Source: Candidatus Omnitrophota bacterium
GTDB lineage: Bacteria; Omnitrophota; Gorgyraeia; Gygaellales; Profunditerraquicolaceae
NCBI GenBank assembly: GCA_025453445.1
Contig: JALOQJ010000003.1
Span: 23,369 to 87,368, forward strand
Direction: 5' to 3'
DNA: 64,000 nucleotides
Below are positions 10,764-55,098 of the stretch, in pieces. Both the position numbers and the translations under genes were made by a program. A model generated the notes under the pieces. The model saw only the letters and a program-made list of their open reading frames with translations, had not been told where the DNA came from and did not search any database. The first letter of the stretch is position 1. Each line of letters begins with the position of its first letter.

Positions 10764-10776
10764 CAAGGAGGCTCAA

Positions 10777-13999: not shown

Positions 14000-14016
14000 G
14001 TTTTCTTATCATTACC

Positions 14017-16908
14017 ATGGGATATAAGATTGAAATTAAGGAAAGACCGGGAATTTTTGATGCTGTGGGTAATGGCGTCAAAAAAGACATCCTTGATTTG
14101 GGGATAAATTCCGTAGATCGGGTGCAGTTTATACAAATTTATCTGATTGAAGGCAATATTTCTCAGGATGAAGTAAAGAAAATCTGCGAAGATCTGTTGG
14201 TGGATAAAATCAGCCAGGATTATTCTATCAATAATTCTCAGCCTCCGGTAGCCCGCCGGAATGAATTTGTTGTAGAAGTTGCATATAATCCCGGAGTAAT
14301 GGATCCTGTGGAGTTGTCGGTATTAAAAGCAATTAAAGACTTGGGCATAGACGGCGCTGAGGGAGTAAAAACCGCAAAGAAATACCTGCTCAGGGGAAAA
14401 CTCTCTGCAATACAGCTAAAAACAATTTCTGAAAAACTGCTTTATAATAAATTAATCCAGCATATCGTCAGCTCTCAGCTTTCAGCTCTCAGCTTTCAGC
14501 CTGCCGGGTATAAATTTAATCTTATTACTGTTGATCTTTCAGGCGCTTCCGATAAAAAATTGGAAAAAATCAGCAAAGACGGTCAATTATTTTTGAATCT
14601 TAAAGAAATGCGCCAGATTAAAAATTATTTTAAGGGGTTAGACCGTAATCCCACTGATTGCGAATTAGAAACCTTGGCGCAGACTTGGTCTGAACATTGC
14701 GGGCACAAGACATTTAGAGGAAGAATAAAATATACTGAGCAAATTAAAGATTCAAAACCCAAAACAAAGTTAATAGATAATCTTTTAAAATCTACAATTG
14801 TTAAAGTTACAAAAGAATTGAAAAAGCCGTGGTGTGTTTCGGTATTCCATGATAATTCCGGAGTAATTAAGTTTGACGATAAATATAATGTCTGTTTTAA
14901 AGTAGAAACGCACAATCACCCATCGGCATTGGAGCCTTTTGGCGGAGCAAACACTGGTATCGGGGGCGTGATCCGTGATCCGTTAGGCACAGGTTTGGGC
15001 GCTAAGCCGATTTTAAATACTGATGTTTTCTGTTTTGCGCCGCCTGATTATCCGTTTGATAAATTGCCTCAGGGTACACTTCATCCTAAGAGGATTATGA
15101 AAGGCGTAGTTTCCGGAGTGCGTGATTATGGCAATAAGATGGGAATTCCTACGGTTAACGGTGCAGTATTATTCCATGAAAGATTTGTCGGCAATCCGCT
15201 TGTTTATTGCGGTACTGTGGGAATTATGCCTAAAGATAAGACTTTTAAAGAAACTAAAGTTGGGGATTTGATTGTAGTGGTAGGCGGCCGCACCGGCAGA
15301 GACGGAATTCACGGCGCAACTTTTTCATCCGGTGAACTGACGCATGAGTCGGAAACTATTTCATCCGGAGCAGTGCAAATCGGAAACCCGATCCAGGAAA
15401 AGAAAATGGTAGATACGATATTACAGGCACGCGACATGAATTTATATAACGCGATTACTGACTGCGGAGCAGGCGGCCTCTCTAGCGCAGTCGGAGAGAT
15501 GGGCGCTGAAATCGGGGCAAGAGTTGATTTAGATAAAGTGCCCTTAAAATATTCCGGGTTAACTTATGCGGAAATCTGGATTTCCGAGTCGCAGGAAAGA
15601 ATGGTTTTGGCAGTGCCTAAAACTAATATTGATCGATTGCTTGAGGTTTTTGCTGCGGAAAATGTTGAAGCTACGGTCATCGGAGAATTTAACCAGACAA
15701 AACGGCTCGAACTTTTTTATCAGGGTAATCTGGTTTGTGATTTAAAGATGAAGTTTCTCCACGACGGCCTGCCGCAGCTGGAAAAGAAAGCTGTATTTAT
15801 TCAGGAAAAACACAGAGAGCCGAAATTGCCTGAAACCCAAAACCTGACAAAAAATTTATCAGAGTTATTATCGCATTATGATATTTGTTCCAAGGAATGG
15901 GTGATCCGGCAGTATGATCACGAAGTGCAGGGTGGGTCAATTTTAAAACCTTTAATAGGTATTGTGAATGATGGGCCGTCTGATGCTGCAGTAGCACAGC
16001 CAGTATTAGGCTCAAAAAAAGGCCTGATTATTTCTAACGGGATAAATTTCCGTTTTGGTTTTATTGATCCTTACTGGATGGCGGCATCTTGTATTGATGA
16101 GGCCTTGCGCCAGATTATTTCTGTAGGAGGATCATTGAAAGAAGTGGCGATTCTGGATAATTTTTGCTGGGGTAATCCTGATAAGCCGGACAGGCTTGGT
16201 GGCCTGGTCAGGGCAGCAAACGGATGCTATGATATTGCTAAGGGTTTTGGCGTGCCGTTTATTTCCGGCAAGGACAGCCTTTATAACGAATACAGCGTAA
16301 ATAATAAATCTTTGCCCATACCCGGCACGCTTTTGATTTCTGCCATCGCTGTGATGGATGATATCGCGAAAACAATTTCTATGTATGCAAAAAAATCTGG
16401 TAATTTAATTTATGTAGTCGGCGATACATATGATGAATTAGGCGGTTCGCATTATTATGATACTTTGGGATTTTTAGGCAATAATTGCCCGCGTGTAAAT
16501 ACCAAAAAAGCAAAAGAGGTTTTTAATGCTTTGAGTGCAGCATCATCTGCGGGTTTAATTGAGGCAATGCATGATTGCTCAGAAGGCGGCATTGCTGTGG
16601 CAGCAGCAGAAATGGCTTTTAGCGGCGAGTTGGGAATGGAATTATTTTTATCGGAAGTGCCCTATAAAATGCAAAGCGTAAGGAATGATTCTATACTATT
16701 TTCTGAATCAAATTCCAGATTTATTGTTGAAGTAGAAAAGAAGAATCAGAAAGCCTTTGAGCAAGAATTGCAGGGAATATCTTTTGGCTTGATTGGCTGT
16801 TTATCAAAAGATAAAAATTTTAAGGTGCACAGTATAGAGGGGAAAATCTGTATTGAAGCAGGGATTAATCAATTAAAAGAAGCATGGCTTAAACCATTGA
16901 GGTGGTAG
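14017..16908 (+). CDS. purL: Phosphoribosylformylglycinamidine synthase, PurS-PurL fusion
   Basis: 963 aa. The N-terminal ~80 aa resemble PurS. PurL AIR-synthase-like domains (GIGGVIRDP, GGRTGRDGIHGATFSS). Contains an in-frame heptamer-repeat insertion. Confidence 0.85.
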   Translation: MGYKIEIKERPGIFDAVGNGVKKDILDLGINSVDRVQFIQIYLIEGNISQDEVKKICEDLLVDKISQDYSINNSQPPVARRNEFVVEVAYNPGVMDPVELSVLKAIKDLGIDGAEGVKTAKKYLLRGKLSAIQLKTISEKLLYNKLIQHIVSSQLSALSFQPAGYKFNLITVDLSGASDKKLEKISKDGQLFLNLKEMRQIKNYFKGLDRNPTDCELETLAQTWSEHCGHKTFRGRIKYTEQIKDSKPKTKLIDNLLKSTIVKVTKELKKPWCVSVFHDNSGVIKFDDKYNVCFKVETHNHPSALEPFGGANTGIGGVIRDPLGTGLGAKPILNTDVFCFAPPDYPFDKLPQGTLHPKRIMKGVVSGVRDYGNKMGIPTVNGAVLFHERFVGNPLVYCGTVGIMPKDKTFKETKVGDLIVVVGGRTGRDGIHGATFSSGELTHESETISSGAVQIGNPIQEKKMVDTILQARDMNLYNAITDCGAGGLSSAVGEMGAEIGARVDLDKVPLKYSGLTYAEIWISESQERMVLAVPKTNIDRLLEVFAAENVEATVIGEFNQTKRLELFYQGNLVCDLKMKFLHDGLPQLEKKAVFIQEKHREPKLPETQNLTKNLSELLSHYDICSKEWVIRQYDHEVQGGSILKPLIGIVNDGPSDAAVAQPVLGSKKGLIISNGINFRFGFIDPYWMAASCIDEALRQIISVGGSLKEVAILDNFCWGNPDKPDRLGGLVRAANGCYDIAKGFGVPFISGKDSLYNEYSVNNKSLPIPGTLLISAIAVMDDIAKTISMYAKKSGNLIYVVGDTYDELGGSHYYDTLGFLGNNCPRVNTKKAKEVFNALSAASSAGLIEAMHDCSEGGIAVAAAEMAFSGELGMELFLSEVPYKMQSVRNDSILFSESNSRFIVEVEKKNQKAFEQELQGISFGLIGCLSKDKNFKVHSIEGKICIEAGINQLKEAWLKPLRW
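14466..14500. repeat. Tandem heptamer array YTCAGCY x5 in-frame inside purL
   Basis: cgtcagc tctcagc tttcagc tctcagc tttcagc, encoding SSQLSALSFQP. Confidence 0.8.
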
Positions 16909-17579
16909 GTATGGGAAAAATTAAAAAAATCAGAAGAATTAAAGATGATTTTACCAAAGAAGATCCTTGGCGGGTTTTCAGGATTATGTCAGAATTTGTT
17001 GATGGTTTTGAAGTGCTTTCTAGGGTGGGAAAAGCAGTGTCTATGTTCGGCGGCAGCAGAATTTCTGCCGGCCATAAATATTACAAACTGGCTGAAGAAA
17101 CTGCCTATTTATTAGCAAAAGCAGGCTTTGCAGTAATTACAGGCTCTGGCCCGGGGATCATGGAGGCAGGTAATAAGGGTGCACAGCGCGCTAATGGGCT
17201 TTCTATAGGCCTAAATATTCAGATTCCCACTGAGCAAAAAGCGAATAAGTATGTGGGTACACTTCTGGATTTTCATTACTTTTTTGTGCGCAAAGTGATG
17301 TTTGTTAAATACGCCAAAGCATTTGTAATTATGCCCGGAGGCTATGGTACTTTGGATGAATTATTTGAATCATTGAATTTAATCCAGACTGAACGTATTG
17401 GAAAATTTCCGGTTATTCTGATGGGGAAAAAATACTGGAAAGGCATGCTTAATTGGCTAGGTGATACTGTATTGACAAACAAGACTATCTCAAAAGGTGA
17501 TTTGGATATATTTACCGTTACGGATGATCCGAAAGAAGTAGTCAGGTTAATTAAGAAATTTTATGAAAAGAAATCCTAA
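16902..17579 (+). CDS. LOG-family nucleotide 5'-monophosphate nucleosidase (TIGR00730-type Rossmann protein)
   Basis: PGGYGTLDELFE and GxGxxE motifs typical of LOG/YvdD. Overlaps the purL stop and purQ start. Confidence 0.75.
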   Translation: MVGMGKIKKIRRIKDDFTKEDPWRVFRIMSEFVDGFEVLSRVGKAVSMFGGSRISAGHKYYKLAEETAYLLAKAGFAVITGSGPGIMEAGNKGAQRANGLSIGLNIQIPTEQKANKYVGTLLDFHYFFVRKVMFVKYAKAFVIMPGGYGTLDELFESLNLIQTERIGKFPVILMGKKYWKGMLNWLGDTVLTNKTISKGDLDIFTVTDDPKEVVRLIKKFYEKKS

Positions 17580-18354
17580 GGTTTGTGTATTAAGGACAGC
17601 AGGGACTAACTGCGATAAAGAAACTGCATTTGCTTTTGTGCAAGCCGGCGCGGATGCAGAATTGGTGCATATCAATAAATTTATTCAGCGGGAAAGGAAT
17701 TTTTCCGATTATGAGATTCTTGCCATTCCGGGGGGGTTTAGTTATGGGGATGATGTGGCAGCGGGAAAAATTCTGGCCAATGAATTGCGCACTAAATTAA
17801 TAGATGATTTAAGGCAATTCATTCAGGACGGCAAGTTGATTATCGGGATTTGCAATGGCTTCCAGATTTTAGTTAAAAGCGGTTTACTGCCTGGCAATGA
17901 TATGTTCGAGCAGGAAGTGAGCCTGGTTATAAACGATTCGGGGAAATTTGAGGATCGTTGGGTGTATTTAAAAAGTAAAAAGTCGAAAGTAAACAGTCAA
18001 AAGTGTGTCTGGACGAAGCATTTGCCGGAGGTAATTTATCTGCCGGTGGCGCATGGAGAGGGAAAGTTTATTGTTCAGGATGAAACAATTTTAAAAAAAC
18101 TGAAAGACAACAACGAGGTTGTATTTCAGTATTGCGATGAAGCGGGAAAATTAGCAGGCTATCCGGATAATCCTAATGGTTCGCTGGAGAATATCGCCGG
18201 TATTACTGATCAAACCGGCAGGATTCTCGGGTTAATGCCGCATCCGGAGAGGCATATCAGTGTATTACAGCATCCGCGTTGGATGGGTAAAAAAGAAGGC
18301 GATGGCCTGAGAATTTTTAAAAACGGCGTAGATTATATCAGGAATCATTTTTAA
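17563..18354 (+). CDS. purQ: Phosphoribosylformylglycinamidine synthase glutaminase subunit
   Basis: Class I GATase with catalytic GICNGFQ Cys and MPHPER His. 263 aa. Confidence 0.85.
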   Translation: MKRNPKVCVLRTAGTNCDKETAFAFVQAGADAELVHINKFIQRERNFSDYEILAIPGGFSYGDDVAAGKILANELRTKLIDDLRQFIQDGKLIIGICNGFQILVKSGLLPGNDMFEQEVSLVINDSGKFEDRWVYLKSKKSKVNSQKCVWTKHLPEVIYLPVAHGEGKFIVQDETILKKLKDNNEVVFQYCDEAGKLAGYPDNPNGSLENIAGITDQTGRILGLMPHPERHISVLQHPRWMGKKEGDGLRIFKNGVDYIRNHF

Positions 18355-18363
18355 TATGTATTT

Positions 18364-18397
18364 GGTTGTAGCGGAGGTTTAAACCTCCGCTACAACC
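18364..18397. repeat. 34-bp perfect palindrome centred on GTTTAAAC
   Basis: GGTTGTAGCGGAGGTTTAAACCTCCGCTACAACC. A partial third arm (GCGGAGGTTAACC) supplies the purF-like RBS. A near-identical palindrome is at 39728. Confidence 0.7.
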
Positions 18398-18414
18398 ATG
18401 GCGGAGGTTAACCA

Positions 18415-19812
18415 ATGAGCGGAATTTTCGGGGTAGTATCAAAAAATAATTGCCAGGAAGATCTGTATTATGGTACAGACTATCATTCGCATTTAGGGAC
18501 ACAATTCGCCGGCCTTGCTGTCTGGCAGAATAATGAAATTGCGCGTAAAATTCATGATATTAAGGGAAGCCAGTTCAAGGCAAAATTTTATCAGGATTAT
18601 AAAGAACTACACGGGAAAAAAGGAATAGGCGTAATCAGCGGGCACGAAGAACAGCCGATTTTGGTGCATTCTAAATTTGGGCCCTTTGCCATAGTTACTA
18701 ATGGCTTTATTGAAAATGCCAATGAGCTGGCACAAGAATTATACAAGCAGGGAAAATCTTTTAGTGAAGTTACAAACGGAAGCGTTAATTCCACGGAATT
18801 AATTGCTAAGTTAATTATTTGCGGGAAGGATATCGTTTCTGGTATCGAGGGAATGTTTTCTAAAATAAAAGGCTCCTGTTCGCTGCTTCTTTTAAATAAG
18901 GACGGGCTCTATGCAGCAAGGGATAAGTTTGGTTATTCGCCGTTAATCATCGGGCAAAAAGGCGATGAATGGGCAGTAACTACGGAAAGTTCAGCTCTTT
19001 ATAATTTGGGTTTCAAGGTAAAAAAGAATATCGAGCCCGGAGAAATTGTCTTGCTTGATGACAGCGGCATAAAATCTAAATCCAAACCTGGTAAATGCAG
19101 CCAAATATGTTCTTTTCTCTGGATTTATACCGGTTTTCCTGCTTCTTGTTATGATGGGATTAATGTGGAGATGTCCCGGGAAAGATGCGGCAGATGCTTG
19201 GCGAAAAACGATAAAGTAAGGGCTGATATGGTTTCAGGTATCCCTGATTCAGGGACTGCCCATGCTGTTGGTTATGCTATGGAGTCGAAAGTTCCTTTCC
19301 GCAGGCCGCTGGTAAAATATACGCCCGGATTTGACCGCAGCTATACTCCGGCTTTACAGGAAAGGCGCGATTTAATCGCCCGGATGAAACTTATACCCAT
19401 AGAAGATATCATCAGAGGCAAACGGATTATTTTTTGCGATGATTCCATTGTCAGAGGCACGCAGCTGAAAAATTACACTATTCAGAAACTTAACGAATGC
19501 GGGGCAAAGGAAATCCATTTAAGGATTGCTTGTCCGCCATTAATGTTTCCCTGTAAGTTTAATTATTCCACGCGCACGTTACAGGAATTGGTGGCGCGAC
19601 GGGCGATAAAAACGCTGGAAGGTAAAGACCTGGAGAATGTTTCTGATTATCTTGATGAAGACTCCGGAAAATATAAAAAAATGGTTGCCTGGATCGCCAA
19701 GGATCTGGGGGCAACTACGCTGAAATACCAGAAGATGAGCGATATGATTAATGCCATAGGCCTGCCTAAGAGCAAATTGTGTTTATATTGTTGGACAGGG
19801 AGAGAGGTATGA
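18415..19812 (+). CDS. Amidophosphoribosyltransferase-like protein (PurF homolog with Ser in place of the N-terminal Cys nucleophile)
   Basis: Ntn-GATase-like N-terminus MSGIFGV (PurF is MCGIVG). PRTase motif FCDDSIVRGTQ. Located in the purF position between purQ and purM. Confidence 0.75.
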   Translation: MSGIFGVVSKNNCQEDLYYGTDYHSHLGTQFAGLAVWQNNEIARKIHDIKGSQFKAKFYQDYKELHGKKGIGVISGHEEQPILVHSKFGPFAIVTNGFIENANELAQELYKQGKSFSEVTNGSVNSTELIAKLIICGKDIVSGIEGMFSKIKGSCSLLLLNKDGLYAARDKFGYSPLIIGQKGDEWAVTTESSALYNLGFKVKKNIEPGEIVLLDDSGIKSKSKPGKCSQICSFLWIYTGFPASCYDGINVEMSRERCGRCLAKNDKVRADMVSGIPDSGTAHAVGYAMESKVPFRRPLVKYTPGFDRSYTPALQERRDLIARMKLIPIEDIIRGKRIIFCDDSIVRGTQLKNYTIQKLNECGAKEIHLRIACPPLMFPCKFNYSTRTLQELVARRAIKTLEGKDLENVSDYLDEDSGKYKKMVAWIAKDLGATTLKYQKMSDMINAIGLPKSKLCLYCWTGREV

Positions 19813-20810
19813 CCATGCTTACTTATAAAAAAGCAGGGGTGGATATAAATAAAGCCACGGGCTTTAAAACCAAGATCAAGGCGTTGGTGAGAAAGTCATT
19901 CCGGCCGGAAGTTTTAAAAGATATCGGCGGCTTCGGCAGTTTTTTCAGCATGCCGAAAAATTATAAAGATCCGGTTTTGGTTTCTTCTACCGATGGCGTG
20001 GGGACAAAGTTAAAAATCGCCATCCTTGCGCATAAGCACGATACTATCGGCATTGATGCCGTAGGGATGAACGTAAATGATATTTTATGCACCGGGGCAG
20101 AGCCATTATTTTTCTTAGACTATATCGCAAGCGGTAAATTAAAACCAGATGTGCTTTTTGATGTGGTTAAGGGCATCAATGACGGATGCATTGAGGCAGG
20201 TTGTTCTTTGATCGGAGGTGAAACTGCGGAAATGCCCGGGATGTATAAGGAAGGTGAATACGATATCGGGGCATTTTGCGTAGGCGTTGTAGAGCGTAAG
20301 AATATCATCGATGGTTCAAAGGTTGCTTGCGGAGATGTTGTGATTGGTTTGGAATCAAGCGGGATACATTCCAATGGTTATTCTTTGGTAAGAAAGGTAT
20401 TTACTAAAAATGAATTAATCAGGATGAGTGATGAATTGCTTAAGCCAACACGCATTTATGTTAAACCGGTCCTGGGTTTATTGAAGAAATATCCGCGTTC
20501 GGTCAATGGTATTGCCCATATTACCGGAGGAGCCTTTTACGATAAAATTTCCCGGATTTTGCCGGATAATATAAATGTGAGGATTTATAAAAATTCCTGG
20601 GTTGTGCCGAAGATTTTCCGGCTAATGCAGACTAAGGGTATTATAGAAGATAAAGAGATGTATCATACTTTTAATATGGGTATTGGTATGGTTTTAATTG
20701 TAAAGCCTGAGTTTACCAAAATGATCATTGCTAAATTAGCTGAGTTTCGGCTTAAGGCATGGGTCATAGGTGAGGCAATAAAAGGGAAAAAAGAAGTGGA
20801 ATTGATTTAA
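19809..20810 (+). CDS. purM: Phosphoribosylformylglycinamidine cyclo-ligase (AIR synthetase)
   Basis: DGVGTKLKIA and GGETAEMPG motifs. ATG overlaps the purF-like stop (ATGA). Confidence 0.85.
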   Translation: MTMLTYKKAGVDINKATGFKTKIKALVRKSFRPEVLKDIGGFGSFFSMPKNYKDPVLVSSTDGVGTKLKIAILAHKHDTIGIDAVGMNVNDILCTGAEPLFFLDYIASGKLKPDVLFDVVKGINDGCIEAGCSLIGGETAEMPGMYKEGEYDIGAFCVGVVERKNIIDGSKVACGDVVIGLESSGIHSNGYSLVRKVFTKNELIRMSDELLKPTRIYVKPVLGLLKKYPRSVNGIAHITGGAFYDKISRILPDNINVRIYKNSWVVPKIFRLMQTKGIIEDKEMYHTFNMGIGMVLIVKPEFTKMIIAKLAEFRLKAWVIGEAIKGKKEVELI

Positions 20811-20823
20811 CAAAGGAGGCAAG

Positions 20824-21699
20824 ATGGGTATTATGTCTTTAATCGGAATAATTGTGGTTGTTATATTTTTTATGGGTATCAGAATTGTCCGTCCGACGCA
20901 TCGCGGGCTGATCGAGAGATTCGGTAAATATAACCGTTTTGCCAATCCGGGATTTAACTGGATTTTTCCTGTTATCGAGAATATTTATCAGGTGAATATT
21001 ACTGAGCAGATGGTGGATGCTGAGCCGCAGGAAATTATCACCAATGATAACCTGAATGCCAAAGTGGATGCGCAGGTTTATTTTAAGGTCAAGCCTTCTG
21101 AGCAGGATGTAAAAAACGCAATTTACAATGTGTTTAATTTCCAGTATCAGATTGTCAATTTAGCAAGGACTACCCTTAGGAATATTATCGGCACTCTGAC
21201 ACTTAAATCCGCAAATTCCGAGCGCGGAAAAATTAATGCCGAATTACACCGGACTTTGATGGAAGAAACCTCAAGCTGGGGTATTGAGATTGTTAGGACG
21301 GAATTAAAAGAAATTGACCCGCCTAAAGATGTGCAGGAGACGATGAACAAGGTTGTCAAGGCTGAGAATGAGAAAATTGCGGCTATAGATTATGCTACAG
21401 CTACTGAAACTGCTGCGGATGGCCAGAAGCGCGCGGAGATTAAAAAAGCCGAAGGTATTAAACAGGCTCGGATTCTTGAAGCAGAAGGCGAAGCTGAGGC
21501 AATTAAGCTTGTTAATGAAGCAGCAGAGCATTATTTTGTCGGCAATGCGCAGGTGTTGCGCAAGCTTGAGGCAGTTGAAAAGTCCTTGCAGCATAACGCA
21601 AAGATTGTAGTTCCGGCAAATACAGAGTTAGTTAATGTCATCGGTGAGATGGCAGGTTTCCTGCCGTTGAAAAAAGAAGTAAAGGAAGACAAGAAATAA
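20824..21699 (+). CDS. SPFH/Band-7 (stomatin/prohibitin-like) membrane protein
   Basis: N-terminal TM helix, SPFH core, and an Ala/Glu-rich coiled-coil tail. Confidence 0.8.
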   Translation: MGIMSLIGIIVVVIFFMGIRIVRPTHRGLIERFGKYNRFANPGFNWIFPVIENIYQVNITEQMVDAEPQEIITNDNLNAKVDAQVYFKVKPSEQDVKNAIYNVFNFQYQIVNLARTTLRNIIGTLTLKSANSERGKINAELHRTLMEETSSWGIEIVRTELKEIDPPKDVQETMNKVVKAENEKIAAIDYATATETAADGQKRAEIKKAEGIKQARILEAEGEAEAIKLVNEAAEHYFVGNAQVLRKLEAVEKSLQHNAKIVVPANTELVNVIGEMAGFLPLKKEVKEDKK

Positions 21700-21776
21700 A
21701 AAATTTAACAGGGACTGTCCCCGTCCAAGTCGTTTAACTGTATTTTAAGGGGACTGTCCCGTTGGTTCTTTCACAG

Positions 21777-21979
21777 TTTCGCGTGTGCCTTGTCTAGTTT
21801 CTCGCTCATTAGTATTGAGCGGGTCCTGTCTGCCGATCCACCTCGCCGTCCTCGTTATTCGCTGCGGGCGGCAAGGTCTTCGTCTCGGCAGCCACCCGCA
21901 AAAAAAGAATCTTTTTTCAATTAGGGGGGGGAGTTGGTTGGGGCGTTCCTGAGAAAACACAGACAAGACAGACGCGAGA
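21777..21979 (+). mobile_element. MITE-like GC-rich repeat, copy A, with ~22-bp terminal inverted repeats
   Basis: Left TIR GTTTCGCGTGTGCCTTGTCTAG and right TIR CACAGACAAGACAGACGCGAGAC. Internal similarity to copies at 40645 and 42150-42366 (shared AATCTTTTTTCAATTA). Contains a G8 tract. Confidence 0.55.
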
Positions 21980-22069
21980 CTTGAGAATAAATAGATTACG
22001 GCAGCAGATGGTTAAACAACAGAAGCAGTACATCGCCTGAGAAATTAGACAGGCGATAAAGGAGGAAAG

Positions 22070-30334: not shown

Positions 30335-30778
30335 ATGAAAAAGATAGCTTCGTTTATGATGATTTCAGTTTTAATTTTAGTAAGTTGCTTGGGGTGTGCG
30401 GAAAATAAGACTCGGGTAGCTGAAGGGGCAGTTGCCGGAGGCGCATTAGGCGCTTTAGCCGGCGGGTTACTCAAGGGCGGTACCGGAGCTGCTGTCGGCG
30501 CAGCTATTGGTGCTACGGGTGGAGCGTTAGTCGGCGCACAAATAGATAAAAAACCAGAACAGGCTGAAGCAGCAGAAGTTAAAACAGCCTCTGATCCTAA
30601 CGCAACACAGATGTCCATTCTGCAGGTAATTGAACTTTCCAAACAAGGCACTCCGGATAGCGTGATTATCGATAAAATAAAAAAGAGTAATTCCAAGTTT
30701 AACCTTAGTTTGGAAGATATTAATTATCTGAAAAAACAAGGCATGAGCGACAAAGTGATTAATGTGATGAGGGAGTAA
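30335..30778 (+). CDS. Lipoprotein with glycine-zipper region
   Basis: RBS AAGGAGGAG. Lipoprotein signal VSCLGC, then a Gly/Ala zipper GAVAGGALGALAGG... Confidence 0.6.
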   Translation: MKKIASFMMISVLILVSCLGCAENKTRVAEGAVAGGALGALAGGLLKGGTGAAVGAAIGATGGALVGAQIDKKPEQAEAAEVKTASDPNATQMSILQVIELSKQGTPDSVIIDKIKKSNSKFNLSLEDINYLKKQGMSDKVINVMRE

Positions 30779-33855: not shown

Positions 33856-34272
33856 ATGCAGAAATTTATTATTTTATTTTTTTTATTATTTAGACCGTTT
33901 GCTTTTGCAGAGGTTTCTTTGCAGGAGGTCTGTGTTAAAAATACCTGTTTGAAAGCAGAGATTGCTTCCTCTCTGGAGGAGCGCAGGTTGGGGTTAATGT
34001 TCAGGGAATCCTTACCTAAAGACAGGGGCATGCTTTTTATTCTTGATTTTAAGGAAAGTAGCAGCTTCTGGATGAAAAATATGCAGTTCCCTTTGGATAT
34101 TATCTGGATCGATAAAGATAAAGTAATCAGCGAAATTATGCAAAACGTCTTACCGTGCAGCAAGAGCTGCCCGGATCTTATTCCACAGCAACAAGCCAGT
34201 TTTGTTTTGGAAGTAAATGCAGGTTTTGTCCAAAAACACCGCATTAAAGCAGGCGACAAGGTAAGATTTTAG
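33856..34272 (+). CDS. DUF192 (COG1430) family secreted protein
   Basis: Signal peptide and MQFPLDIIWIDKD motif. Confidence 0.6.
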   Translation: MQKFIILFFLLFRPFAFAEVSLQEVCVKNTCLKAEIASSLEERRLGLMFRESLPKDRGMLFILDFKESSSFWMKNMQFPLDIIWIDKDKVISEIMQNVLPCSKSCPDLIPQQQASFVLEVNAGFVQKHRIKAGDKVRF

Positions 34273-36146
34273 CCGGTACGCAGCTGTTTTTCCGCATCAA
34301 CCACATCGCGGTTAATCACGCGGATAGTTTCTTTAATTCTTTCTTTTATTACGGCTGAGGTAGCGCCGGCGTCGTTTATTTCTTTTAAGATCTGGATGCT
34401 CATCCTAAAATACCTGACTACTTCGCCTTCGTCAGTATCGGTAAACTGCAATATCTTTTCAAAATTTGTCCCGCGCAGCCACGCTTCCATGCAATTGCTT
34501 AAGTGAAAATACGGCTGTTTACTAAAGGAATAAATGCGGTGTTTTCTTTCCCGTTCCCTGATCTGTAAATAAAATTCTTCGGCAAGGCTTTTAATTTTAC
34601 GGCCTGCCTTGGAGAGGCTGAGTAAGTGCTGATTTTTACGCGGCTCAAAGACCACCGAAGCAGTAAGAATCCCCAGCCCGAATTCATCCAGTTGTTCCAG
34701 TATGCCTGCTCCGAAAAGCTCTGAAAGGATTAACTCATATCCATAAACTGTTTTGGCGAATTTACCCTTTTGGGTAAGGGCGTTATTTTCAATATAGCCT
34801 AATTCTTTGAGCAGGTTTAATTTTGCCTCAATTGCCTGCAATGCCGCTTTTTGTTCATTTTTACGCGATTGGAAATAATGTAGAGAAAGTGGGTAGATTT
34901 TAAAAAGCCCCTCCTGATATTTTTCGTAAAGGTTCAATATTGTTGCATAAGAAGTGTTAAACTGGCTTTTTACCGGCTCCGCAGGGGAATAAATGATGCG
35001 TTTTACTTCTTGCGGGTCAATACGCCGGGGATTAATCCGGCAGTAAACAAAGCCTTCTTTATCAATGCCGCGCCTACCTGCACGGCCAGCCATCTGGTAA
35101 AAATCGCGCGTCTTTAAGTTCCGCACATAATGGCCGTAGAATTTTCTCAATTCATCAAAAATAACACTGCGGCTGGGCATATTGATGCCGAGGGCAAAGG
35201 TTTCAGTGGTAAAAATAACTTTCAGCAGCCGGCTGGTAAATAATCTTTCGATTACTTCTTTTAAAGTCGGCAGCATCCCGGCATGATGATAAGCAATGCC
35301 TTTTTGAACCAGTGGTAGCATTTCAGCGGCAGTGCGGTCGTCTTTCAGGTCAAAGCGCTGGCAGAGGTTGCTATATAGTTCACAGATCTGTATTTTTTCT
35401 TTTGAGCTGAGGAAATTATAATTAAATAATTCCTGCGCCAATTCTTCGGCTCGGCGCCTGCCAAAAACAAAATAAATACAAGGCAAGCCTTCTTCCTGCT
35501 GCAGGTAGCTGATCAGTGAGCTGATTCTGTTTACCCTGCTGTCTTTGCGGTGCCGTATACCGTTTAAATTATTCAGTATTTCATTTTGGTATTGATAAAA
35601 AAAATGCAAAGGTACCGGCCTTTTTTCCTCAAGTACGGTTTTTACCTGTTTCTTGTGGATTGATTCGATCCATTTGGCAATTTGCGCAATATTGGGGATA
35701 GTCGCTGAGAGCGCTAAAATATTCATATGGGCCGGTAAAAAAATCAGGGATTCTTCCCAGACTGTACCGCGCTCGGGATTATCAAGGTAATGCACCTCGT
35801 CAAAAATTACCCATTGATAGGGTTTTAGGCTTTGCGGTTCATCGAGGATTTTGTTACGGAAGATTTCCGTAGTCATGATTAATACCGGCGCCCCGGGGTT
35901 CAAGGAAACATCGCCGGTTAAGATGCCGATATTATCGCCGTATTGGCTTTGGAAATCGCGGAATTTCTGGTTGGAAAGGGCTTTAATCGGCGCGGTATAA
36001 ATGACTCCGGTTTTTTTCTCAATGCAGCTGGTAATAATATGTTCTGCAATTGCGGTTTTCCCTGCGCCTGTAGGCGCTGAGACGATTACCGAATGTCCCT
36101 GATTAATATAATCAATGGCTTCCTGCTGAAAACGATCGTAAAGCAT
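34269..36146 (-). CDS. DEAD/DEAH-box helicase, Ski2-like
   Basis: Walker A SAPTGAGKTAIAEH, DEVH box (FDEVHYL), helicase C-terminal region QMAGRAGRRG. 625 aa. Confidence 0.8.
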   Translation of the reverse strand: MLYDRFQQEAIDYINQGHSVIVSAPTGAGKTAIAEHIITSCIEKKTGVIYTAPIKALSNQKFRDFQSQYGDNIGILTGDVSLNPGAPVLIMTTEIFRNKILDEPQSLKPYQWVIFDEVHYLDNPERGTVWEESLIFLPAHMNILALSATIPNIAQIAKWIESIHKKQVKTVLEEKRPVPLHFFYQYQNEILNNLNGIRHRKDSRVNRISSLISYLQQEEGLPCIYFVFGRRRAEELAQELFNYNFLSSKEKIQICELYSNLCQRFDLKDDRTAAEMLPLVQKGIAYHHAGMLPTLKEVIERLFTSRLLKVIFTTETFALGINMPSRSVIFDELRKFYGHYVRNLKTRDFYQMAGRAGRRGIDKEGFVYCRINPRRIDPQEVKRIIYSPAEPVKSQFNTSYATILNLYEKYQEGLFKIYPLSLHYFQSRKNEQKAALQAIEAKLNLLKELGYIENNALTQKGKFAKTVYGYELILSELFGAGILEQLDEFGLGILTASVVFEPRKNQHLLSLSKAGRKIKSLAEEFYLQIRERERKHRIYSFSKQPYFHLSNCMEAWLRGTNFEKILQFTDTDEGEVVRYFRMSIQILKEINDAGATSAVIKERIKETIRVINRDVVDAEKQLRTG

Positions 36147-36228
36147 AGATTATATTATAATCTAAAATATTGATTTATCCAATAAAAAAGGGTAGAATAA
36201 CAATGAATGATAGATAATATTTGTTTGC

Positions 36229-36298
36229 TATCAGTCATCAGCTTTCAGCTATCAGCTTAAAGCTGAAGGCTGACAGTTAAAGGCTGACAGCTGAAAAT
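36229..36298. repeat. Intergenic heptamer array (NNTCAGC-like units) arranged as direct units followed by inverted units
   Basis: tatcagt catcagc tttcagc tatcagc ttaaagc | tgaaggc tgacagt taaaggc tgacagc tgaaaat. Confidence 0.55.
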
Positions 36299-39684: not shown

Positions 39685-39727
39685 GGTTGTGAGGATGCAA
39701 CAAAATCGTTAACAGTAGTTAGGAGCT

Positions 39728-39759
39728 GCCGTAGCGGAGGTTTAAACCTCCGCTACGGC
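39728..39759. repeat. 32-bp perfect palindrome centred on GTTTAAAC (same family as 18364)
   Basis: GCCGTAGCGGAGGTTTAAACCTCCGCTACGGC, 8 nt upstream of aroK. Confidence 0.7.
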
Positions 39760-39767
39760 ATTAGGTT

Positions 39768-40286
39768 ATGAACAATATTTATTTAGTCGGTTTTATGGGC
39801 ACAGGTAAGACTTCCGTCGGATATGAGCTTGCCAAAAAGATAAAGCAGCAGTTTATTGATCTTGATTCTTTGATTGAGCTGCGTGAGAAAAAGCTGATTG
39901 CAGATATTTTTGCCGAAAAAGGCGAGCCATATTTCCGTAAAGTTGAAAAGCAAGCTTTAAAAGAAGTTGCGAAAGAAAAAGGTTTTGTTGTTGCTACTGG
40001 CGGTGGGATTGTGATCAATCCGGAAAATATTAAAATTATGAAAGAAACAGGTATGTTGATTTGTTTGAGTGCGTCGCCCGAAGTAATTTTAAAAAGGGTG
40101 TCGGGATTAGACCTTCGGCCGCTTATGAATGTTAAAGATCCCAAAAAACAAATTGAACTGCTGTTAAAACTACGCGCGCCATATTATGCCTTGGCAGGTA
40201 AAACAATTGATACATCTAAGTTATCGGTAGGCCGAGTTGTACAAAATATCATCAAAGTCATCAGTAAGAGAGGTTCAAAAAGATGA
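39768..40286 (+). CDS. aroK: Shikimate kinase
   Basis: [16 protein letters not shown]-loop and SK fold. Confidence 0.85.
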
Positions 40287-40609
40287 AGAAATGCCCTTAT
40301 TGCGCAGAAGAAATACAGGACGAGGCGATAAAGTGCAGATATTGTGGGGAGATGTTGGAAAATAAGGTGCCTAAACCTAAGTGGTACCTCAAGACCTCCT
40401 CGCTAGTTATCGCTTTTTTATGTGTCGGCCCTCTGGCTTTGCCATTAATCTGGATAAATCCTCGTTTCAGCAAGAATAGTAAAATAATCATTACAATTGT
40501 GGTTATTATCCTAACCTATTACTTAGGTTCTTGGGTGTTAAGTTCTCTAAAGTCAATAAAAGAATATTACGGCCCGATCTTTGAAAATAATGCAGTTACC
40601 CTATATTAG
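40283..40609 (+). CDS. Zinc-ribbon membrane protein (hypothetical)
   Basis: CPYCAEE...CRYCGE zinc ribbon followed by two TM helices. Confidence 0.55.
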
Positions 40610-40644
40610 CTTCAAATATAATGACTAAGCTTGAGTCTATAATT

Positions 40645-40862
40645 GTTTCGCGTGTGTCTTGTCTGTATTTTTGCGGGAACGTTTGCCCCGCCCCAGCGTG
40701 GCGGGGCTGCACTTCGTTCCAGCCCCTCGCTCTCCCGCAGCCGGGCGGTGGATAAAATCGTTTTTTTATTAAGGAGCCGGCTGCGGGAACCGTGCCCGCT
40801 CGGGGCTTCCAAGATCCCGCAAAAACACATCCAAGCCACCCGCTGGACACAGGACAGTGCAA
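40645..40862 (+). mobile_element. MITE-like GC-rich repeat, copy B
   Basis: Left TIR GTTTCGCGTGTGTCTTGTCTG and degenerate right TIR GGACACAGGACAG. ~200 nt alignable with the reverse complement of 42150-42366. The listed ORF 40643..41236 N-terminus and the 40596/40612 - strand ORFs are translations of this repeat. Confidence 0.55.
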
Positions 40863-40906
40863 GGGAGCATGGGGGGGGTTATAGAGTTTTAGGAAAGGGA
40901 GGTAAC

Positions 40907-41236
40907 ATGAGAATATTTTTGTTATTAGTACTATGTTTGGGATTATGCGGGTGTGTAACTACATCATCGAGAATCAACAATATTTCTTTAGGAATGACCA
41001 AGGCAAATGTCCTCAGGTCTATGGGAACACCGACAAGCACATCTGCTAAAGGAACGACGGAATATTTGACTTATAAATTAATAGTAGCTTATGACCGTGT
41101 TGACCCAATTTATAATGACTACTTTGTTAAACTTATTGATGGAAAAGTCGAATCATACGGTAAGGTCGGGGATTTTGATTCTGTCAAGAATCCCACTAAC
41201 GATATAAATCTAAATGTTAAAAGTGTAATTAAATAG
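40907..41236 (+). CDS. BamE/SmpA_OmlA-like small lipoprotein
   Basis: RBS AAAGGGAGG. Lipobox LCGC. LGMTKANVLRSMGTPTSTS matches the SmpA/OmlA core. Confidence 0.6.
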   Translation: MRIFLLLVLCLGLCGCVTTSSRINNISLGMTKANVLRSMGTPTSTSAKGTTEYLTYKLIVAYDRVDPIYNDYFVKLIDGKVESYGKVGDFDSVKNPTNDINLNVKSVIK

Positions 41237-41285
41237 AAATAATGCGGTGTCCGAAGGAGCTTCAAAAATATATAGGACTTATCCA

Positions 41286-41317
41286 GAGAGTAGGTGACGT
41301 TTAAACGTCACCTACTC
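41286..41317. repeat. 32-bp perfect palindrome centred on GTTTAAAC (third family member)
   Basis: AGAGTAGGTGACGTTTAAACGTCACCTACTCT. Confidence 0.6.
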
Positions 41318-41432
41318 TTACCCTATGGATAATTCGGGGTTTTTAAAGTCGCGCCCCCTGTCTGATAGTAGGTGGAGAATCGCGTTTTGCCAACTGTCCA
41401 GAGAGGACAACGTAACAAAGTAAAGGTTGATA

Positions 41433-42137
41433 ATGGACGAAAATAAAATTGATGCAGCAGATTATTTACAAAGGTTTAGCGCAAAGGTTCTATGGCATTT
41501 TACAGGCTATAATAAGTCGTCGAAAGACTCTTTTGCCCGCTTAGTTTCGATAGCAAAAGAAGGATTATTAAAAATTTCCGATAGATCTTTTCCAATAAAA
41601 ATGCCCAATGGCGAAAAAAGAATTGGATTTCCTTCTTCTTGTGTTTGTGATATTCCTTTTAAAGACTTAAGATTGCATATTTTAAGATATGGAGGATTCG
41701 GAATCGCGTTTAATAAAGAAAAGGCAATTCTTACTGGGCACTTCAATCCTGTTTTATATATAAATAAGAATCATATTTTTTTTAAGCATGCAGAAAAAAT
41801 TTTACCAGAGTTAGAACGATTAGAGTCTTCGTGTGGAAATTCAAAACAAGTTTTACAAGAATATTTAAAGATGATGGGAACATATGTAAAACGTTGCGAT
41901 TTAACAAGTATAATACATCTTGATCCAAAGATTGATGAAGAGCAAAACAATAACTTTTATTATGAAAGAGAATGGCGTTCAGCTTATGATTGGAATTTTA
42001 TTAGAGGTGACGTAGTGACAGTAATGATGCCGCAAGATTATATTGGTTTATTTCAGGAAGAGCTCAAAGGAAGCAAAGGGGAAGGGGTATTTAAAAATCT
42101 TTCAATTATTTCGACAGAAATGGTAGAAATATTATAA
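41433..42137 (+). CDS. Hypothetical protein (234 aa); possible divergent ADP-ribosyltransferase-fold (DarT/DUF4433-like?) protein
   Basis: RBS AAAGG 6 nt before the ATG. Motifs LWHFTG...LVSIAKEGLL, YYEREWR and C-terminal STEMVEIL. Visibly more AT-rich than the flanks. The family call is recollection-level only. Confidence 0.5.
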   Translation: MDENKIDAADYLQRFSAKVLWHFTGYNKSSKDSFARLVSIAKEGLLKISDRSFPIKMPNGEKRIGFPSSCVCDIPFKDLRLHILRYGGFGIAFNKEKAILTGHFNPVLYINKNHIFFKHAEKILPELERLESSCGNSKQVLQEYLKMMGTYVKRCDLTSIIHLDPKIDEEQNNNFYYEREWRSAYDWNFIRGDVVTVMMPQDYIGLFQEELKGSKGEGVFKNLSIISTEMVEIL

Positions 42138-42149
42138 TGAAATAAGTAA

Positions 42150-42366
42150 CGGAGGGGGAGATTTTTAGCGTGGGGATTGGCTGGGATTTCGAGGGACGTG
42201 GAGGCAAGGAGCGGGCATGGTTCCCACATCCGGCTCATTAATTGAAAAAAGATTTTATCCACGGCCCGGATGCGGGAGAGCGACGCAGCCGACCCGAGCG
42301 AAGTTTTGCCTCGCAGGGGCAAAACGAGCGCTCCCGAGAAACCCAGATAAGACACACGCGAGACAA
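42150..42366 (-). mobile_element. MITE-like GC-rich repeat, copy C (inverted relative to copy B)
   Basis: The reverse complement starts GTCTCGCGTGTGTCTTATCTG (the TIR) and aligns with copy B through CTCGCTCTCCCGCA..CCGGG..GTGGATAAAATC. The listed ORF 42053..42355(-) is a translation of it. Confidence 0.55.
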
Positions 42367-42379
42367 TATATAAAATAAA

Positions 42380-43474
42380 ATGACAAAACTCGAAGCATTA
42401 ATTAGTTTAAACATGGTAGGCGAAATCGGCAGTATTCGCCTTGGAAGGCTGTTGGATTATTTTGGCAAGTTTGAGAATGTCTTCCGGGCGAGTGCGGAGA
42501 AATTAATTACTATTGCCGGAATCAGCGAGAATGTTGCTAATAGAATTCATACATTCAAACCTGAAGATTTAACCAGAGAATTAGAGTCAGCGCAGAAACT
42601 AGGCTTAAAGATTATTATTTTAGGCGACGCGGATTATCCGGAAATTCTAAAGAATATTCCTAGTCCTCCGATTGTGCTCTATGTCAAAGGCAAATTGGAA
42701 AAAGAAGATAATCTTGCCATTGGTATTGTCGGCAGCCGCCGCGCTTCATATTACGGCCTGTCTTCAGCAGAAAAATTTGCTGCAGAATTGGCAGGTTGCG
42801 GTTTAACTATTGTTTCCGGTATGGCGCGCGGCATTGATACAGCTGCTCACCGGGGAGCTTTAAAGATGAAAGGCCGCACGCTTGCTGTAATCGGCAGTGG
42901 GTTTAAGCACATTTATCCGGAAGAAAATATTGCATTAGCAGAAGAAATCACTGCTAATGGCGCAGTAATTTCTGAATTCAGCATTAATACACAGCCTTTT
43001 AAAGAAAATTTTCCCCGCAGGAACCGGTTAATTAGCGGTCTAAGTTTGGGGACTCTGGTAGTAGAGGCAGCCAGAAACAGCGGAGCGTTAATTACCGCGG
43101 ATTTTGCCCTTGAGCAGGGCAAAGAAGTATTTTGCCTTCCCGGCAGGATTGATTCTCCCGGTTCATTCGGGACAAACGAGTTGATTAAACAAGGAGCAAA
43201 ATTAGTTTCTACAAAAGACGATATTTTGGAAGAGCTGCAGGTTCCCTTAAGGATAGGTATTAAAGAAACTAAAATCAAAAACCGCCTACAAAATCATTCA
43301 GCAGGCAGTGAATCTGCTTTGTATGATTTAATTCCAACTAAGCCTGTTTTCTTAGATGAGCTTTTAGAAAAAACAGGCTTGCAAATTCCTCAGGCATATG
43401 AGATACTCTTGAGGCTGAAGATGCAAAAATTAATAAAACAGCTACCCGGAAAACAATTTATGAGGAGTAATTAA
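42380..43474 (+). CDS. dprA: DNA processing protein A (DprA/Smf)
   Basis: SAM-like N-terminus, Rossmann DprA core (GIVGSRR..., GMARGIDTAAHRGAL), C-terminal winged helix. Confidence 0.85.
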   Translation: MTKLEALISLNMVGEIGSIRLGRLLDYFGKFENVFRASAEKLITIAGISENVANRIHTFKPEDLTRELESAQKLGLKIIILGDADYPEILKNIPSPPIVLYVKGKLEKEDNLAIGIVGSRRASYYGLSSAEKFAAELAGCGLTIVSGMARGIDTAAHRGALKMKGRTLAVIGSGFKHIYPEENIALAEEITANGAVISEFSINTQPFKENFPRRNRLISGLSLGTLVVEAARNSGALITADFALEQGKEVFCLPGRIDSPGSFGTNELIKQGAKLVSTKDDILEELQVPLRIGIKETKIKNRLQNHSAGSESALYDLIPTKPVFLDELLEKTGLQIPQAYEILLRLKMQKLIKQLPGKQFMRSN

Positions 43475-54000: not shown

Positions 54001-55098
54001 ATGAATATTTTATTATTAAGCAATCACCTTAATGTCGGCGGGATTTCCAGCTATATTCTGACCTTAGCAAAAGGCCTGCAGAACAAGGGCCATAAAGTTT
54101 ATGTTGCTTCTGGTGCAGGTGAATTACTGGTGCGTTTAAAAGATGAAGGCATAATTCATATCCCCGTACCATTAAAGACTAAGGCAGAGATAAGCCCGAA
54201 TGTTTTAATCAGTTTTTTCAAATTATTGCCTGAGATGAAGAAAAAAAATATTGATATTATCCATGCCAATACACGGGTAACTCAGGTATTAAGCTGTTTC
54301 TTGAGCCGGTATTCAGGTGCGCCGTTTATTTCTACCTGCCACGGATTTTTTAAAAAAAGGTTGTTCCGGAAGATCTTATCCTGCTGGGGAGAGAGGGTAA
54401 TTGCTATCAGTGAACAGGTAAAAGAGCATTTGGTAAATGATTTTGGAGTTCAGAAAAATAGAATCAGGCTCGTTCATAATGGTATAGATTTAACTAAATT
54501 CAGCCCTCAGCTTTCAGCCTTCAGCTTTCAGCAAAAGAAAGATTTTGCTTTAAGCGACGGCCCGGTTATCGGGATTGTTGCCAGGCTCTCCGATGTTAAA
54601 GGGCATATTTACCTGATTCAGGCAATGAAAATGGTCTTAGAAAAAATTCCTTCAGCGCAACTGGTTATTGTCGGCGAGGGTAAGATTAAAGATAGCCTGG
54701 TCAAATTAAGCCGGGAACTTTGCATTGAGAAAAGCATGAAATTTATTCCCAATGTAATGGATACAAGGGGTATTTTATCGGTTATTGATTTATTTGTCCT
54801 GCCTTCTTTAAAAGAAGGGCTGGGCCTGAGCCTGATGGAGGCAATGAGCATGGGCAAAGCAGTGGTTGGCTCGAATATCGGCGGAATAAAAAGCCTGATT
54901 CAGCACAGGGTAAACGGGCTCTTGGTTGAACCTGCTAATCCTGAACAGTTAGCTTTAGCAATAATTGAGCTTCTGCAGGATGCAGCAAAAAGAGAATTAT
55001 TCGGCCAAAGGGCATTGGAATTTATCGCCGGAAATTTTTCTCAAAGTGACATGATTTCTAAGACGGAAGAGGTTTATCAGGAATGCGTAAAGCGCTGA
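54001..55098 (+). CDS. GT4-family glycosyltransferase
   Basis: EGLGLSLMEAMSMGKAVVGSNIGG. Contains an in-frame heptamer-repeat insertion. Confidence 0.8.
   Translation: MNILLLSNHLNVGGISSYILTLAKGLQNKGHKVYVASGAGELLVRLKDEGIIHIPVPLKTKAEISPNVLISFFKLLPEMKKKNIDIIHANTRVTQVLSCFLSRYSGAPFISTCHGFFKKRLFRKILSCWGERVIAISEQVKEHLVNDFGVQKNRIRLVHNGIDLTKFSPQLSAFSFQQKKDFALSDGPVIGIVARLSDVKGHIYLIQAMKMVLEKIPSAQLVIVGEGKIKDSLVKLSRELCIEKSMKFIPNVMDTRGILSVIDLFVLPSLKEGLGLSLMEAMSMGKAVVGSNIGGIKSLIQHRVNGLLVEPANPEQLALAIIELLQDAAKRELFGQRALEFIAGNFSQSDMISKTEEVYQECVKR
54498..54532. repeat. Tandem heptamer array YTCAGCY x5 in-frame inside the GT4 gene
   Basis: attcagc cctcagc tttcagc cttcagc tttcagc, encoding SPQLSAFSFQQ. Confidence 0.8.

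Follow-up and report, generated by a model that had tools for sequence, protein, structure and literature searches.

The abortive infection system AbiG of lactococci has two components, with abiGi followed directly by abiGii in a single operon. Each of the two proteins proved non-toxic in Escherichia coli (PMC3985639), so that the 'antitoxin' label of AbiGi is a putative one, given by analogy. A survey of families resembling ADP-ribosyltransferases (ARTs) lists AbiGi as known but 'poorly studied', with similarity to DUF2971 and DarT (10.1101/2024.07.30.605764 = PMC12522546), and a 2026 review reports no fold matches for the lactococcal protein (PMC13064643). DarT is a single-stranded DNA thymidine or guanosine ADP-ribosyltransferase of DarTG toxin-antitoxin systems, where a macrodomain (DarG) or NADAR antitoxin gene adjoins it. 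The Tpt1/KptA enzymes feature an N-terminal winged-helix domain and an R-H-R-R catalytic tetrad (PMC8120803). DUF2971 (PF11185), a separate Pfam family, is reported to be significantly similar to both AbiGi and DarT; its motif II contains a Tyr and its motif III an E-x-E (PMC12522546).

Pairs of MITEs are known to flank integrons in Acinetobacter in a composite-transposon-like arrangement (PMC6382973), with identical 439-bp MITEs around class 1 integrons. A pair of MITE-297 on pA297-3 is another example of a MITE-bounded structure of this type. Other short, multi-copy, intergenic and hairpin-forming sequences with terminal inverted repeats include the Correia elements, ERIC, RUP, BOX and REP/BIME, a class that can supply promoters or terminators to adjoining genes.

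Here, we report on a locus in a 64-kb stretch of Omnitrophota DNA (hereafter the window). It is a further member of the AbiGi/ART-fold group, in a known kind of MITE-bracketed layout, from an under-studied phylum. We consider it probable, though well short of certain, that the locus is an accessory island in which imported genes for a lipoprotein and a solo ART-fold AbiGi protein lie between outward-facing MITE-like repeats, the latter being the probable route of arrival.

Family membership and predicted fold of the 234-aa protein

The larger of the two cargo genes (41433-42137, + strand) encodes a 234-aa protein, which the first-pass annotation had presented as an orphan and the core of a novel system. 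This framing does not hold, as the protein belongs to the catalogued AbiGi family: it scores 64 bits against Pfam PF10899 (cut-off 22.4; E 2.3e-17) and 1.3e-18 with the PADLOC AbiGi model, it aligns with AbiGi homologues, and an identical protein bears the NCBI name 'abortive infection system antitoxin AbiGi family protein'. The equivalog model of lactococcal AbiGI (NCBIfam NF042957) gives it 22.1 bits, far from the cut-off of 300. The family is large: homologues numbered 94 in a clustered protein database, metagenome contigs yielded 217 confirmed relatives, and the AbiGi profile retrieved 3,569 matches at E<=1e-3 from 1.84 billion representatives (cluster representatives at 50% identity), among which the top 150 all consist of one domain and measure about 130-370 aa. 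The closest homologue (locus L025, GCA_028716245.1) is 74% identical in amino acids and 77% in nucleotides. To our knowledge, no biochemical study of the AbiGi family has been published to date.

An alignment of 61 homologues, all of which match PF10899, revealed 17 invariant columns that hold down to 27% identity: W21, H22, G25, L46, D73, I74, P75, L79, H82, Y86, F104, P106, Y109, Y176, R179, E180 and W181. Q13, R14, C70, C72, E178 and R182 are nearly invariant. These positions form three motifs, namely WHFTG around H22, C-x-C followed by D-I-P ahead of a conserved helix, and Y-Y-E-R-E-W-R running into a later strand.

In the predicted structural model, the protein shows the split β-sheet core of ADP-ribosyltransferases, and its nearest solved relatives by fold are DarT and Tpt1, both nucleic-acid-modifying enzymes; searching the PDB by sequence and by profile with the 234-aa protein found nothing. 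This predicted fold agrees with the placement of AbiGi among ART-like families (PMC12522546). An initial guess at a DarT-type ART was thus right as to a modelled fold near DarT and Tpt1, but not as to membership of PF14487/DUF4433. H22, within H-F-T, lies on the first strand of the model; C70-x-C72 lies at strand 69-72 and is followed by D73, before helix 76-86; and E178-x-E180 runs into strand 180-183. Judged from the order of these secondary-structure elements rather than from a residue-level superposition, H22 would represent motif I, C70-x-C72-D73 and/or Y109 motif II, and E178-x-E180 motif III. This correspondence makes the protein a candidate, and probably active, NAD+-using transferase acting on DNA or RNA.

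The protein nonetheless differs from each of the neighbouring enzyme groups. The gene lacks the macrodomain or NADAR antitoxin gene that adjoins DarT. Compared with Tpt1/KptA, it encodes a single domain without a winged helix and with an E-x-E, and the R-H-R-R tetrad is not evident because W-H, not R-H, is found at the first-strand His. DUF2971 gave weak matches in two of the 61 homologues and none for the window protein. With lactococcal AbiG, the protein shares the Pfam family, the format of a small, free-standing 200-250-aa domain and a location on accessory low-GC DNA, whereas its sequence is distant, no AbiGii gene adjoins it and its host is an uncultured member of the Omnitrophota (Candidatus Omnitrophica/Omnitrophota), represented by a metagenome-assembled genome.

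The gene stands by itself. There is no AbiGii-type gene within +/-10 kb, and no macrodomain or NADAR gene is adjacent, the neighbours being the lipoprotein gene and dprA. The first-pass annotation had already remarked on the missing macrodomain antitoxin and placed the nearest Macro-NUDIX gene 8.5 kb upstream, rightly in both respects; since that gene is syntenic in the related contig L031, where the cassette is absent, nothing ties it to AbiGi. Of the neighbour families at 48 subfamily loci, none was found at more than four, those four being related contigs; the ones that recur carry no Pfam domain, and the lipoprotein gene is not a conserved neighbour elsewhere. Two more distant AbiGi members, from one Bacillales genome and one metagenome contig, are also solo. 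The member on the metagenome contig sits in a phage-like tail module, beside a tape-measure gene.

Given the modelled fold, the conserved residues and the family context, the most likely activity would be a phage-triggered modification of nucleic acids with NAD+. By analogy with lactococcal AbiG, the protein may act as a phage-triggered abortive-infection or defence effector, in a single-gene module without an AbiGii or macrodomain partner, and such a trigger-dependent effector role would suit an intact ART core better than the role of an antitoxin.

The insert between aroK and dprA

All three features that had been placed within the bracket, namely a lipoprotein ORF, a palindrome and the 234-aa ORF, were found. 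The first cargo gene (40907-41236, + strand) encodes a 109-aa lipoprotein with a signal peptide and the Cys, although its similarity to BamE (20.9 bits) is below the cut-off of 23.2. A perfect 32-nt palindrome centred on GTTTAAAC (41287-41318, no strand) separates the two cargo genes and is probably a hairpin or terminator that keeps their transcription apart. A gene for a 108-aa protein with a zinc ribbon and a transmembrane segment (40283-40609, + strand) overlaps the stop codon of aroK. Its GC content is native-like and it is absent from the orthologous site of relatives L031 and L033; whether it forms part of the insert is uncertain. Among the matches listed in a PADLOC scan of 65 window ORFs, there were only domain-level ones to housekeeping genes (DprA to ShosA, a Ski2-type helicase to HamB).

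The cargo differs in composition from the rest of the window. The AbiGi gene has a GC content of 0.316 and a GC3 of 0.234 (both z about -3.9), the lowest values among the 63 window genes, which bears out the impression that its DNA was richer in AT than the flanks; the lipoprotein gene has a GC content of 0.342 (z -2.9, same 63 genes).

Synteny was compared on contigs of DprA homologues at 68-85% identity; a search of genome contigs with DprA gave a best match only 40% identical and no usable synteny. The empty site that had been proposed between aroK and dprA exists in two of these relatives. In L031 (DprA 75% identical), aroK and dprA are separated by a 140-nt spacer, and in L033 (DprA 68% identical) by one of 88 nt, both relatives being without the zinc-ribbon gene, the lipoprotein gene and AbiGi. 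Their gene order is otherwise kept (Macro-NUDIX or NUDIX ... aroC-spoVG-aroK | dprA-topA-xerC-waaA). For the closest relative (L029/L030, DprA 85% identical), two independent assemblies both break off within another kind of GC-rich repeat, about 150 nt before dprA. The complete unit of cargo and bracketing repeats is known at one locus only, on three contigs of the same sequence.

The bracketing repeats and their family

The insert is bracketed by repeat copies B (40642-40862, + strand; nhmmer E 3e-67) and C (42148-42367, - strand; E 4e-70), two GC-rich, structured, MITE-like elements in inverted orientation. A repeat search of the sequence found inverted arms at 40669-40811 and 42199-42341 (143 nt, 73% complementary), BLAST aligned the copies over 208 nt at 74% identity (E 1e-29), and MAFFT gave about 80% column identity over about 205 nt. 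The 13-mer TCGCGTGTGTCTT is exact in both copies, at the end facing away from the cargo. The well-conserved terminal repeat of B is oriented toward aroK, and the corresponding outer end of C stops 13 nt before the dprA start codon. The pair is real and above chance; arms, BLAST, MAFFT, nhmmer and the exact 13-mer all agree with the original description of inverted GC-rich copies of about 210 bp with their ends outward. C is closer to a copy on another contig (L028:12202-12428) than to B; the L028 copy is 81-83% identical to C and 77.5% to B. These three copies each have one good and one weaker end, and this shared asymmetry points to an ancestral state of their sub-lineage, without independent decay.

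A third, more diverged copy, A, occupies the spacer after a Band_7 gene (21776-21981) and was found by nhmmer, with clean terminal inverted repeats of about 25 nt at both ends. A scan of the 64-kb window for GC-rich islands listed twelve regions; with four of the twelve inspected, copies A, B and C were the only non-coding islands identified, and the region 30373-30580 is coding, for a Gly-rich lipoprotein. Beyond the window, the family includes the L028 copy, a copy at L063:1-167 (nhmmer E 2e-11), a fragment in L025 and, within the aroK-dprA spacer of L031, a GC-rich mini-element of about 110 nt that matches the copy A core at 80% identity and whose end precedes dprA with the polarity of copy C. 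In their size (165-225 nt), non-coding nature and terminal inverted repeats, the units correspond to MITEs, as they do in their dispersal, with three copies in the window in addition to those of L028, L063, L031 and the L025 fragment.

None of the copies A, B and C, nor that of L028, has a convincing direct repeat around it, since a TA that may be present is uninformative in AT-rich sequence, and no target duplication was found around the whole unit of B, cargo and C. A search of 118 loci yielded no transposase-bearing parent element with the same ends, the end motif being confined to the known copies; a terminal-repeat pattern search of viral contigs gave 0 matches, and a protein database search with an alignment of the spurious ORFs encoded by the repeat gave none. 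Rfam held no family for the repeat at gathering or E-value thresholds, and no literature tying Omnitrophota to MITEs was found. As far as searched, this family of GC-rich structured Omnitrophota repeats is undescribed. It has no sequence relationship to Correia elements, ERIC, RUP, BOX or REP/BIME and differs from them in being GC-rich within an AT-rich genome and in a three-helix architecture backed by covariation. A scan for promoters and terminators did no better than on shuffled sequence.

RNA folding makes each unit a long imperfect hairpin (-106.6 kcal/mol, z -5.2, for B; -73.3 kcal/mol, z -2.9, for C). Applied to four sequences, RNAalifold predicted that the terminal repeats pair as a closing stem and that there are two hairpins, a long central one and one to the side. 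Within the covariation alignment of B, C, L028 and L063, the same four sequences from which the structure was derived, compensatory double changes were found in 14 of 50 pairs, and 93.7% of the cells were paired. Shuffled alignments reached the observed values in <=1/500 cases on four of five measures and in 27/500 for further pair types, while slid-register controls gave at most 7 double-change pairs, versus the 14 observed. The compensatory changes extend to the side hairpin, outside the terminal repeats, whose stem reads GCCCCGCC/GGCGGGGC in B, GTTTTGCC/GGCAAAAC in C, GCTGCGCC/GGCGCAGC in L028 and GATTTTCC/GGAAAATC in L063. Cells with G-U and A-C numbered 7 v 3, which shows no clear strand preference.

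The family recurs beside other AbiGi genes. In L028, an AbiGi gene whose product is 48% identical to that of the window is followed, 1.5 kb downstream, by a copy in the orientation of C, and in L063, a copy in the orientation of B lies 55 nt upstream of one whose product is 40% identical. In L025, AbiGi directly follows a Band_7 gene downstream of a pur cluster, and the region is collinear with positions 12698-21699 of the window, so that AbiGi occupies there the same spacer as copy A does here. In L042, AbiGi is bracketed by an inverted pair (105 nt, 78%) of a different GC-rich family, the one found upstream of dprA in L029/L030. According to nhmmer searches of all fetched loci, L028 and L063 are the only other places where the present family adjoins AbiGi, and bracketing inverted repeats occur at three of the 21 AbiGi loci whose flanks each reach 500 nt or more, counts that are biased since the fetched loci are centred on AbiGi. 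A degenerate repeat upstream of the L025 gene was not significant (z about 1 or less), and a repeat-like stretch just after the stop codon of the L028 gene was marginal (z 4.5, score 26 versus a null maximum of 25). The repeat also occurs without AbiGi, as copy A and as the L031 mini-element. The low share of bracketed loci, the bias of the counts, the lack of a significant copy upstream of the L025 gene and these occurrences without AbiGi argue against a strict functional tie between repeat and AbiGi. That the conserved ends point outward and that AbiGi has changed from one repeat-marked spacer to another argues, in turn, that the association is not pure chance.

Origin of the bracket and role of the element

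Under the explanation that we favour, and rate as probable as a whole, the low-GC lipoprotein and stand-alone AbiGi genes would have been acquired from elsewhere and lodged in the aroK-dprA spacer, which would long have been occupied by anciently diverged MITE-like structured repeats. The repeats would mark that the cargo arrived or was relocated, a step that they probably mediated, either with their outward-facing ends mobilised in trans as a composite unit or through recombination or insertion at repeat-occupied spacers acting as hot spots. We infer this repeat-mediated arrival from the layout, from the empty sites and from the presence of AbiGi in different repeat-marked spacers of relatives. 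The divergence of B from C, together with the greater proximity of C to a copy from another genome, argues against a recent composite made by duplication of one element. As in the known MITE-bounded composites, two short non-coding elements with terminal inverted repeats flank a cargo and relatives carry the empty site; however, the paired elements of those composites match completely or almost completely and target duplications are seen, whereas B and C are 74-80% identical, no duplication was found at the locus, no parent IS is known, and the cargo is a defence-type gene. The composite-transposon-like layout advanced in the first-pass annotation accordingly stands for the paired copies, the outward ends and the empty site, but not for near-identity, target duplication or multiple sites. 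An integron cassette with attC and an invertible segment were also considered and dropped, as the copies are inverted, about 210 nt long and 74-80% identical, with no adjacent integrase or invertase. The adjoining xerC-type gene is syntenic in relatives without the insert.

The bracket could also be a coincidence, the aroK|dprA site being a permissive hot spot that gathered two repeat insertions at different times and, independently, the low-GC genes, with repeats that moved nothing. This is a serious but unlikely alternative. The modest identity of B and C and the closer match of C to the L028 copy than to B (81-83%) would be expected from it, as would the related mini-element without cargo in the same spacer of L031, the other GC-rich repeat at the same place in L029/L030, the lack of a visible target-site duplication around the unit and the fact that the majority of AbiGi loci have no bracketing repeats. 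It fits less well with the fact that only three copies were identified in 64 kb, two of which flank the unit with matching outward polarity while the third, A, marks the AbiGi site of the relative L025; with about 60 spacers, we estimate the chance at 1-2% per coincidence. Furthermore, the AbiGi gene of L042 lies between inverted copies of another, unrelated repeat that have the same polarity.

The remaining readings concern function rather than arrival. The element might be a functional structured RNA or single-stranded DNA partner of the solo AbiGi protein (RNA antitoxin, regulator or decoy) that replaces a protein partner, a proposal we hold to be improbable, and equally so in the form of a three-helix element that is the dedicated partner of a single-protein ART defence module and maybe also a vehicle carrying the gene between spacers. 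Its appeal lies in the structure kept by compensatory changes in 14 of 50 pairs, including the side hairpin, in copies that lie beside AbiGi genes whose products are only 40-48% identical to the window's (L028 and L063), and in precedent, as several lactococcal Abi systems couple a protein with an RNA (PMC13064643) and DarT and Tpt1 act on single-stranded DNA and RNA. If true, it would mean an ART-plus-structured-RNA system without a protein antitoxin. However, the element is found without AbiGi (copy A and the L031 mini-element) and on either side of it in both orientations, the lipoprotein gene and a strong palindrome intervene between B and AbiGi, and the closest homologue, L025, has no significant upstream copy. 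Moreover, 18 of the 21 two-flank AbiGi loci have no bracketing inverted repeats, this family adjoins AbiGi elsewhere only in L028 and L063, there is neither a clear strand preference (G-U versus A-C, 7 v 3) nor an Rfam match, and transposase-binding ends, too, would be expected to show covariation in their terminal stem. Less credible still is that the AbiGi gene is an inactive remnant, an 'antitoxin' left without its AbiGii toxin and without any function of its own: the label given to the family by Pfam and NCBI, the lack of a nearby AbiGii and a score far below the NCBIfam cut-off for lactococcal AbiGI (22 vs 300) would fit, but the ORF is intact, the candidate catalytic H and E-x-E are among the 17 columns invariant in 61 homologues, all 48 loci of the subfamily carry the gene solo and intact, and the label was given by analogy, neither lactococcal AbiG protein being toxic in E. 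coli.

We thus return to an imported AbiGi gene whose arrival the repeats probably mediated. Neither what it suggests about AbiGi effectors nor the repeat family would upset current understanding. A DarT/Tpt1-like ART model whose candidate catalytic residues are conserved, in an always solo subfamily, supports the view of AbiGi proteins as effectors, namely nucleic-acid ADP-ribosyltransferases, rather than antitoxins, and the compact 234-aa protein is a candidate for testing AbiGi activity. What is new here is chiefly the structured repeat family, together with its puzzling repeated occurrence next to AbiGi genes: these GC-rich repeats mark variable spacers in Omnitrophota and may shuttle small defence genes.

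The spacer between aroK and dprA

Besides the low-GC cassette that carries the AbiGi-family gene, the spacer between aroK and dprA holds a gene for a 108-amino-acid protein with a zinc ribbon and a transmembrane segment (40283-40609), which overlaps the aroK stop codon (ATGA). This gene is missing from the orthologous site in the relatives L031 and L033, whose AroK proteins instead extend into a longer lysine-rich tail at that position. Its GC content is native-like, so the gene may have joined the spacer before the cassette did.

At the other side of the spacer, the outer end of copy C, one of the two GC-rich MITE-like repeats bracketing the cassette, features a pair of sigma-70-like hexamers (AAGACA and TAAAAT, 16 nt apart; 42349-42376), and the dprA start codon lies 4 nt beyond it. 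Because the promoter scan overall performed no better than on shuffled sequence, the pair is only a hint that copy C could supply a promoter.

At the domain level, PADLOC strongly matched DprA itself (42380-43471) to ShosA (5.5e-67) and a Ski2-type DEAD helicase (34272-36146) to HamB (~1e-34). Further housekeeping genes of the window also gave strong domain-level PADLOC matches. Syntenic conservation in relatives argues against reading these genes as defence systems.

Palindromes and intergenic repeats

A 34-nt palindrome between spoVG and aroK (39727-39760) and a 26-nt one (18368-18393), both perfect, resemble the 32-nt palindrome of the cassette and are probably hairpin terminators. A TCAGC(T/C)T-type heptamer also forms short tandem arrays in intergenic spacers of the window (16-67, 346-411, 14468-14533, 36224-36289 and 54493-54544); some of these arrays are inverted relative to one another, and the motif recurs 5' of dprA in L033 (9960-10000). 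These arrays are a second intergenic repeat class in these genomes, unrelated to the GC-rich MITE-like repeat.

A GC-rich repeat family distinct from that of the window brackets the AbiGi homologue of locus L042 as an inverted pair (1571-1673 and 2874-2973). In the closest relative, this family directly precedes dprA (L029:1-155; L030:1-146), and two independent assemblies both break at the repeat.

Possible insertions beside AbiGi homologues and signs of mobility

In locus L028, a 46-nt inverted repeat (8480-8524 and 10756-10801) encloses Trypsin_2, DUF7694 and AbiGi genes. The same locus harbors a 142-nt direct duplication (11058-11198 and 12437-12578, 92% identical) that contains a 40-amino-acid Desulfoferrodoxin_N mini-gene; since its copies bracket an ORF6N gene, a small membrane protein and a copy of the GC-rich MITE-like repeat, the segment looks like a second small insertion beside AbiGi. 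In L063, 52-nt direct repeats with an internal near-palindrome (965-1016 and 1559-1610, 92% identical) enclose a gene for a 166-amino-acid lipoprotein just 3' of AbiGi, an arrangement resembling a cassette. A tandem array of ~1 kb with a period of ~120 nt (L047:6528-7578) lies a few hundred nucleotides 5' of another AbiGi homologue.

Across loci L025-L077, AbiGi-subfamily genes have a GC content below that of their own contig in nearly every locus, for instance 0.31 versus 0.50 in L057 and 0.49 versus 0.66 in L058, a recurring signature of an AT-rich mobile gene. P0085 (L120:4001-4684), a gene for a distant member of the AbiGi family, resides within an apparent phage tail module; a tape-measure gene precedes it and long unannotated ORFs lie around it. 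This suggests that phages carry some members of the family.
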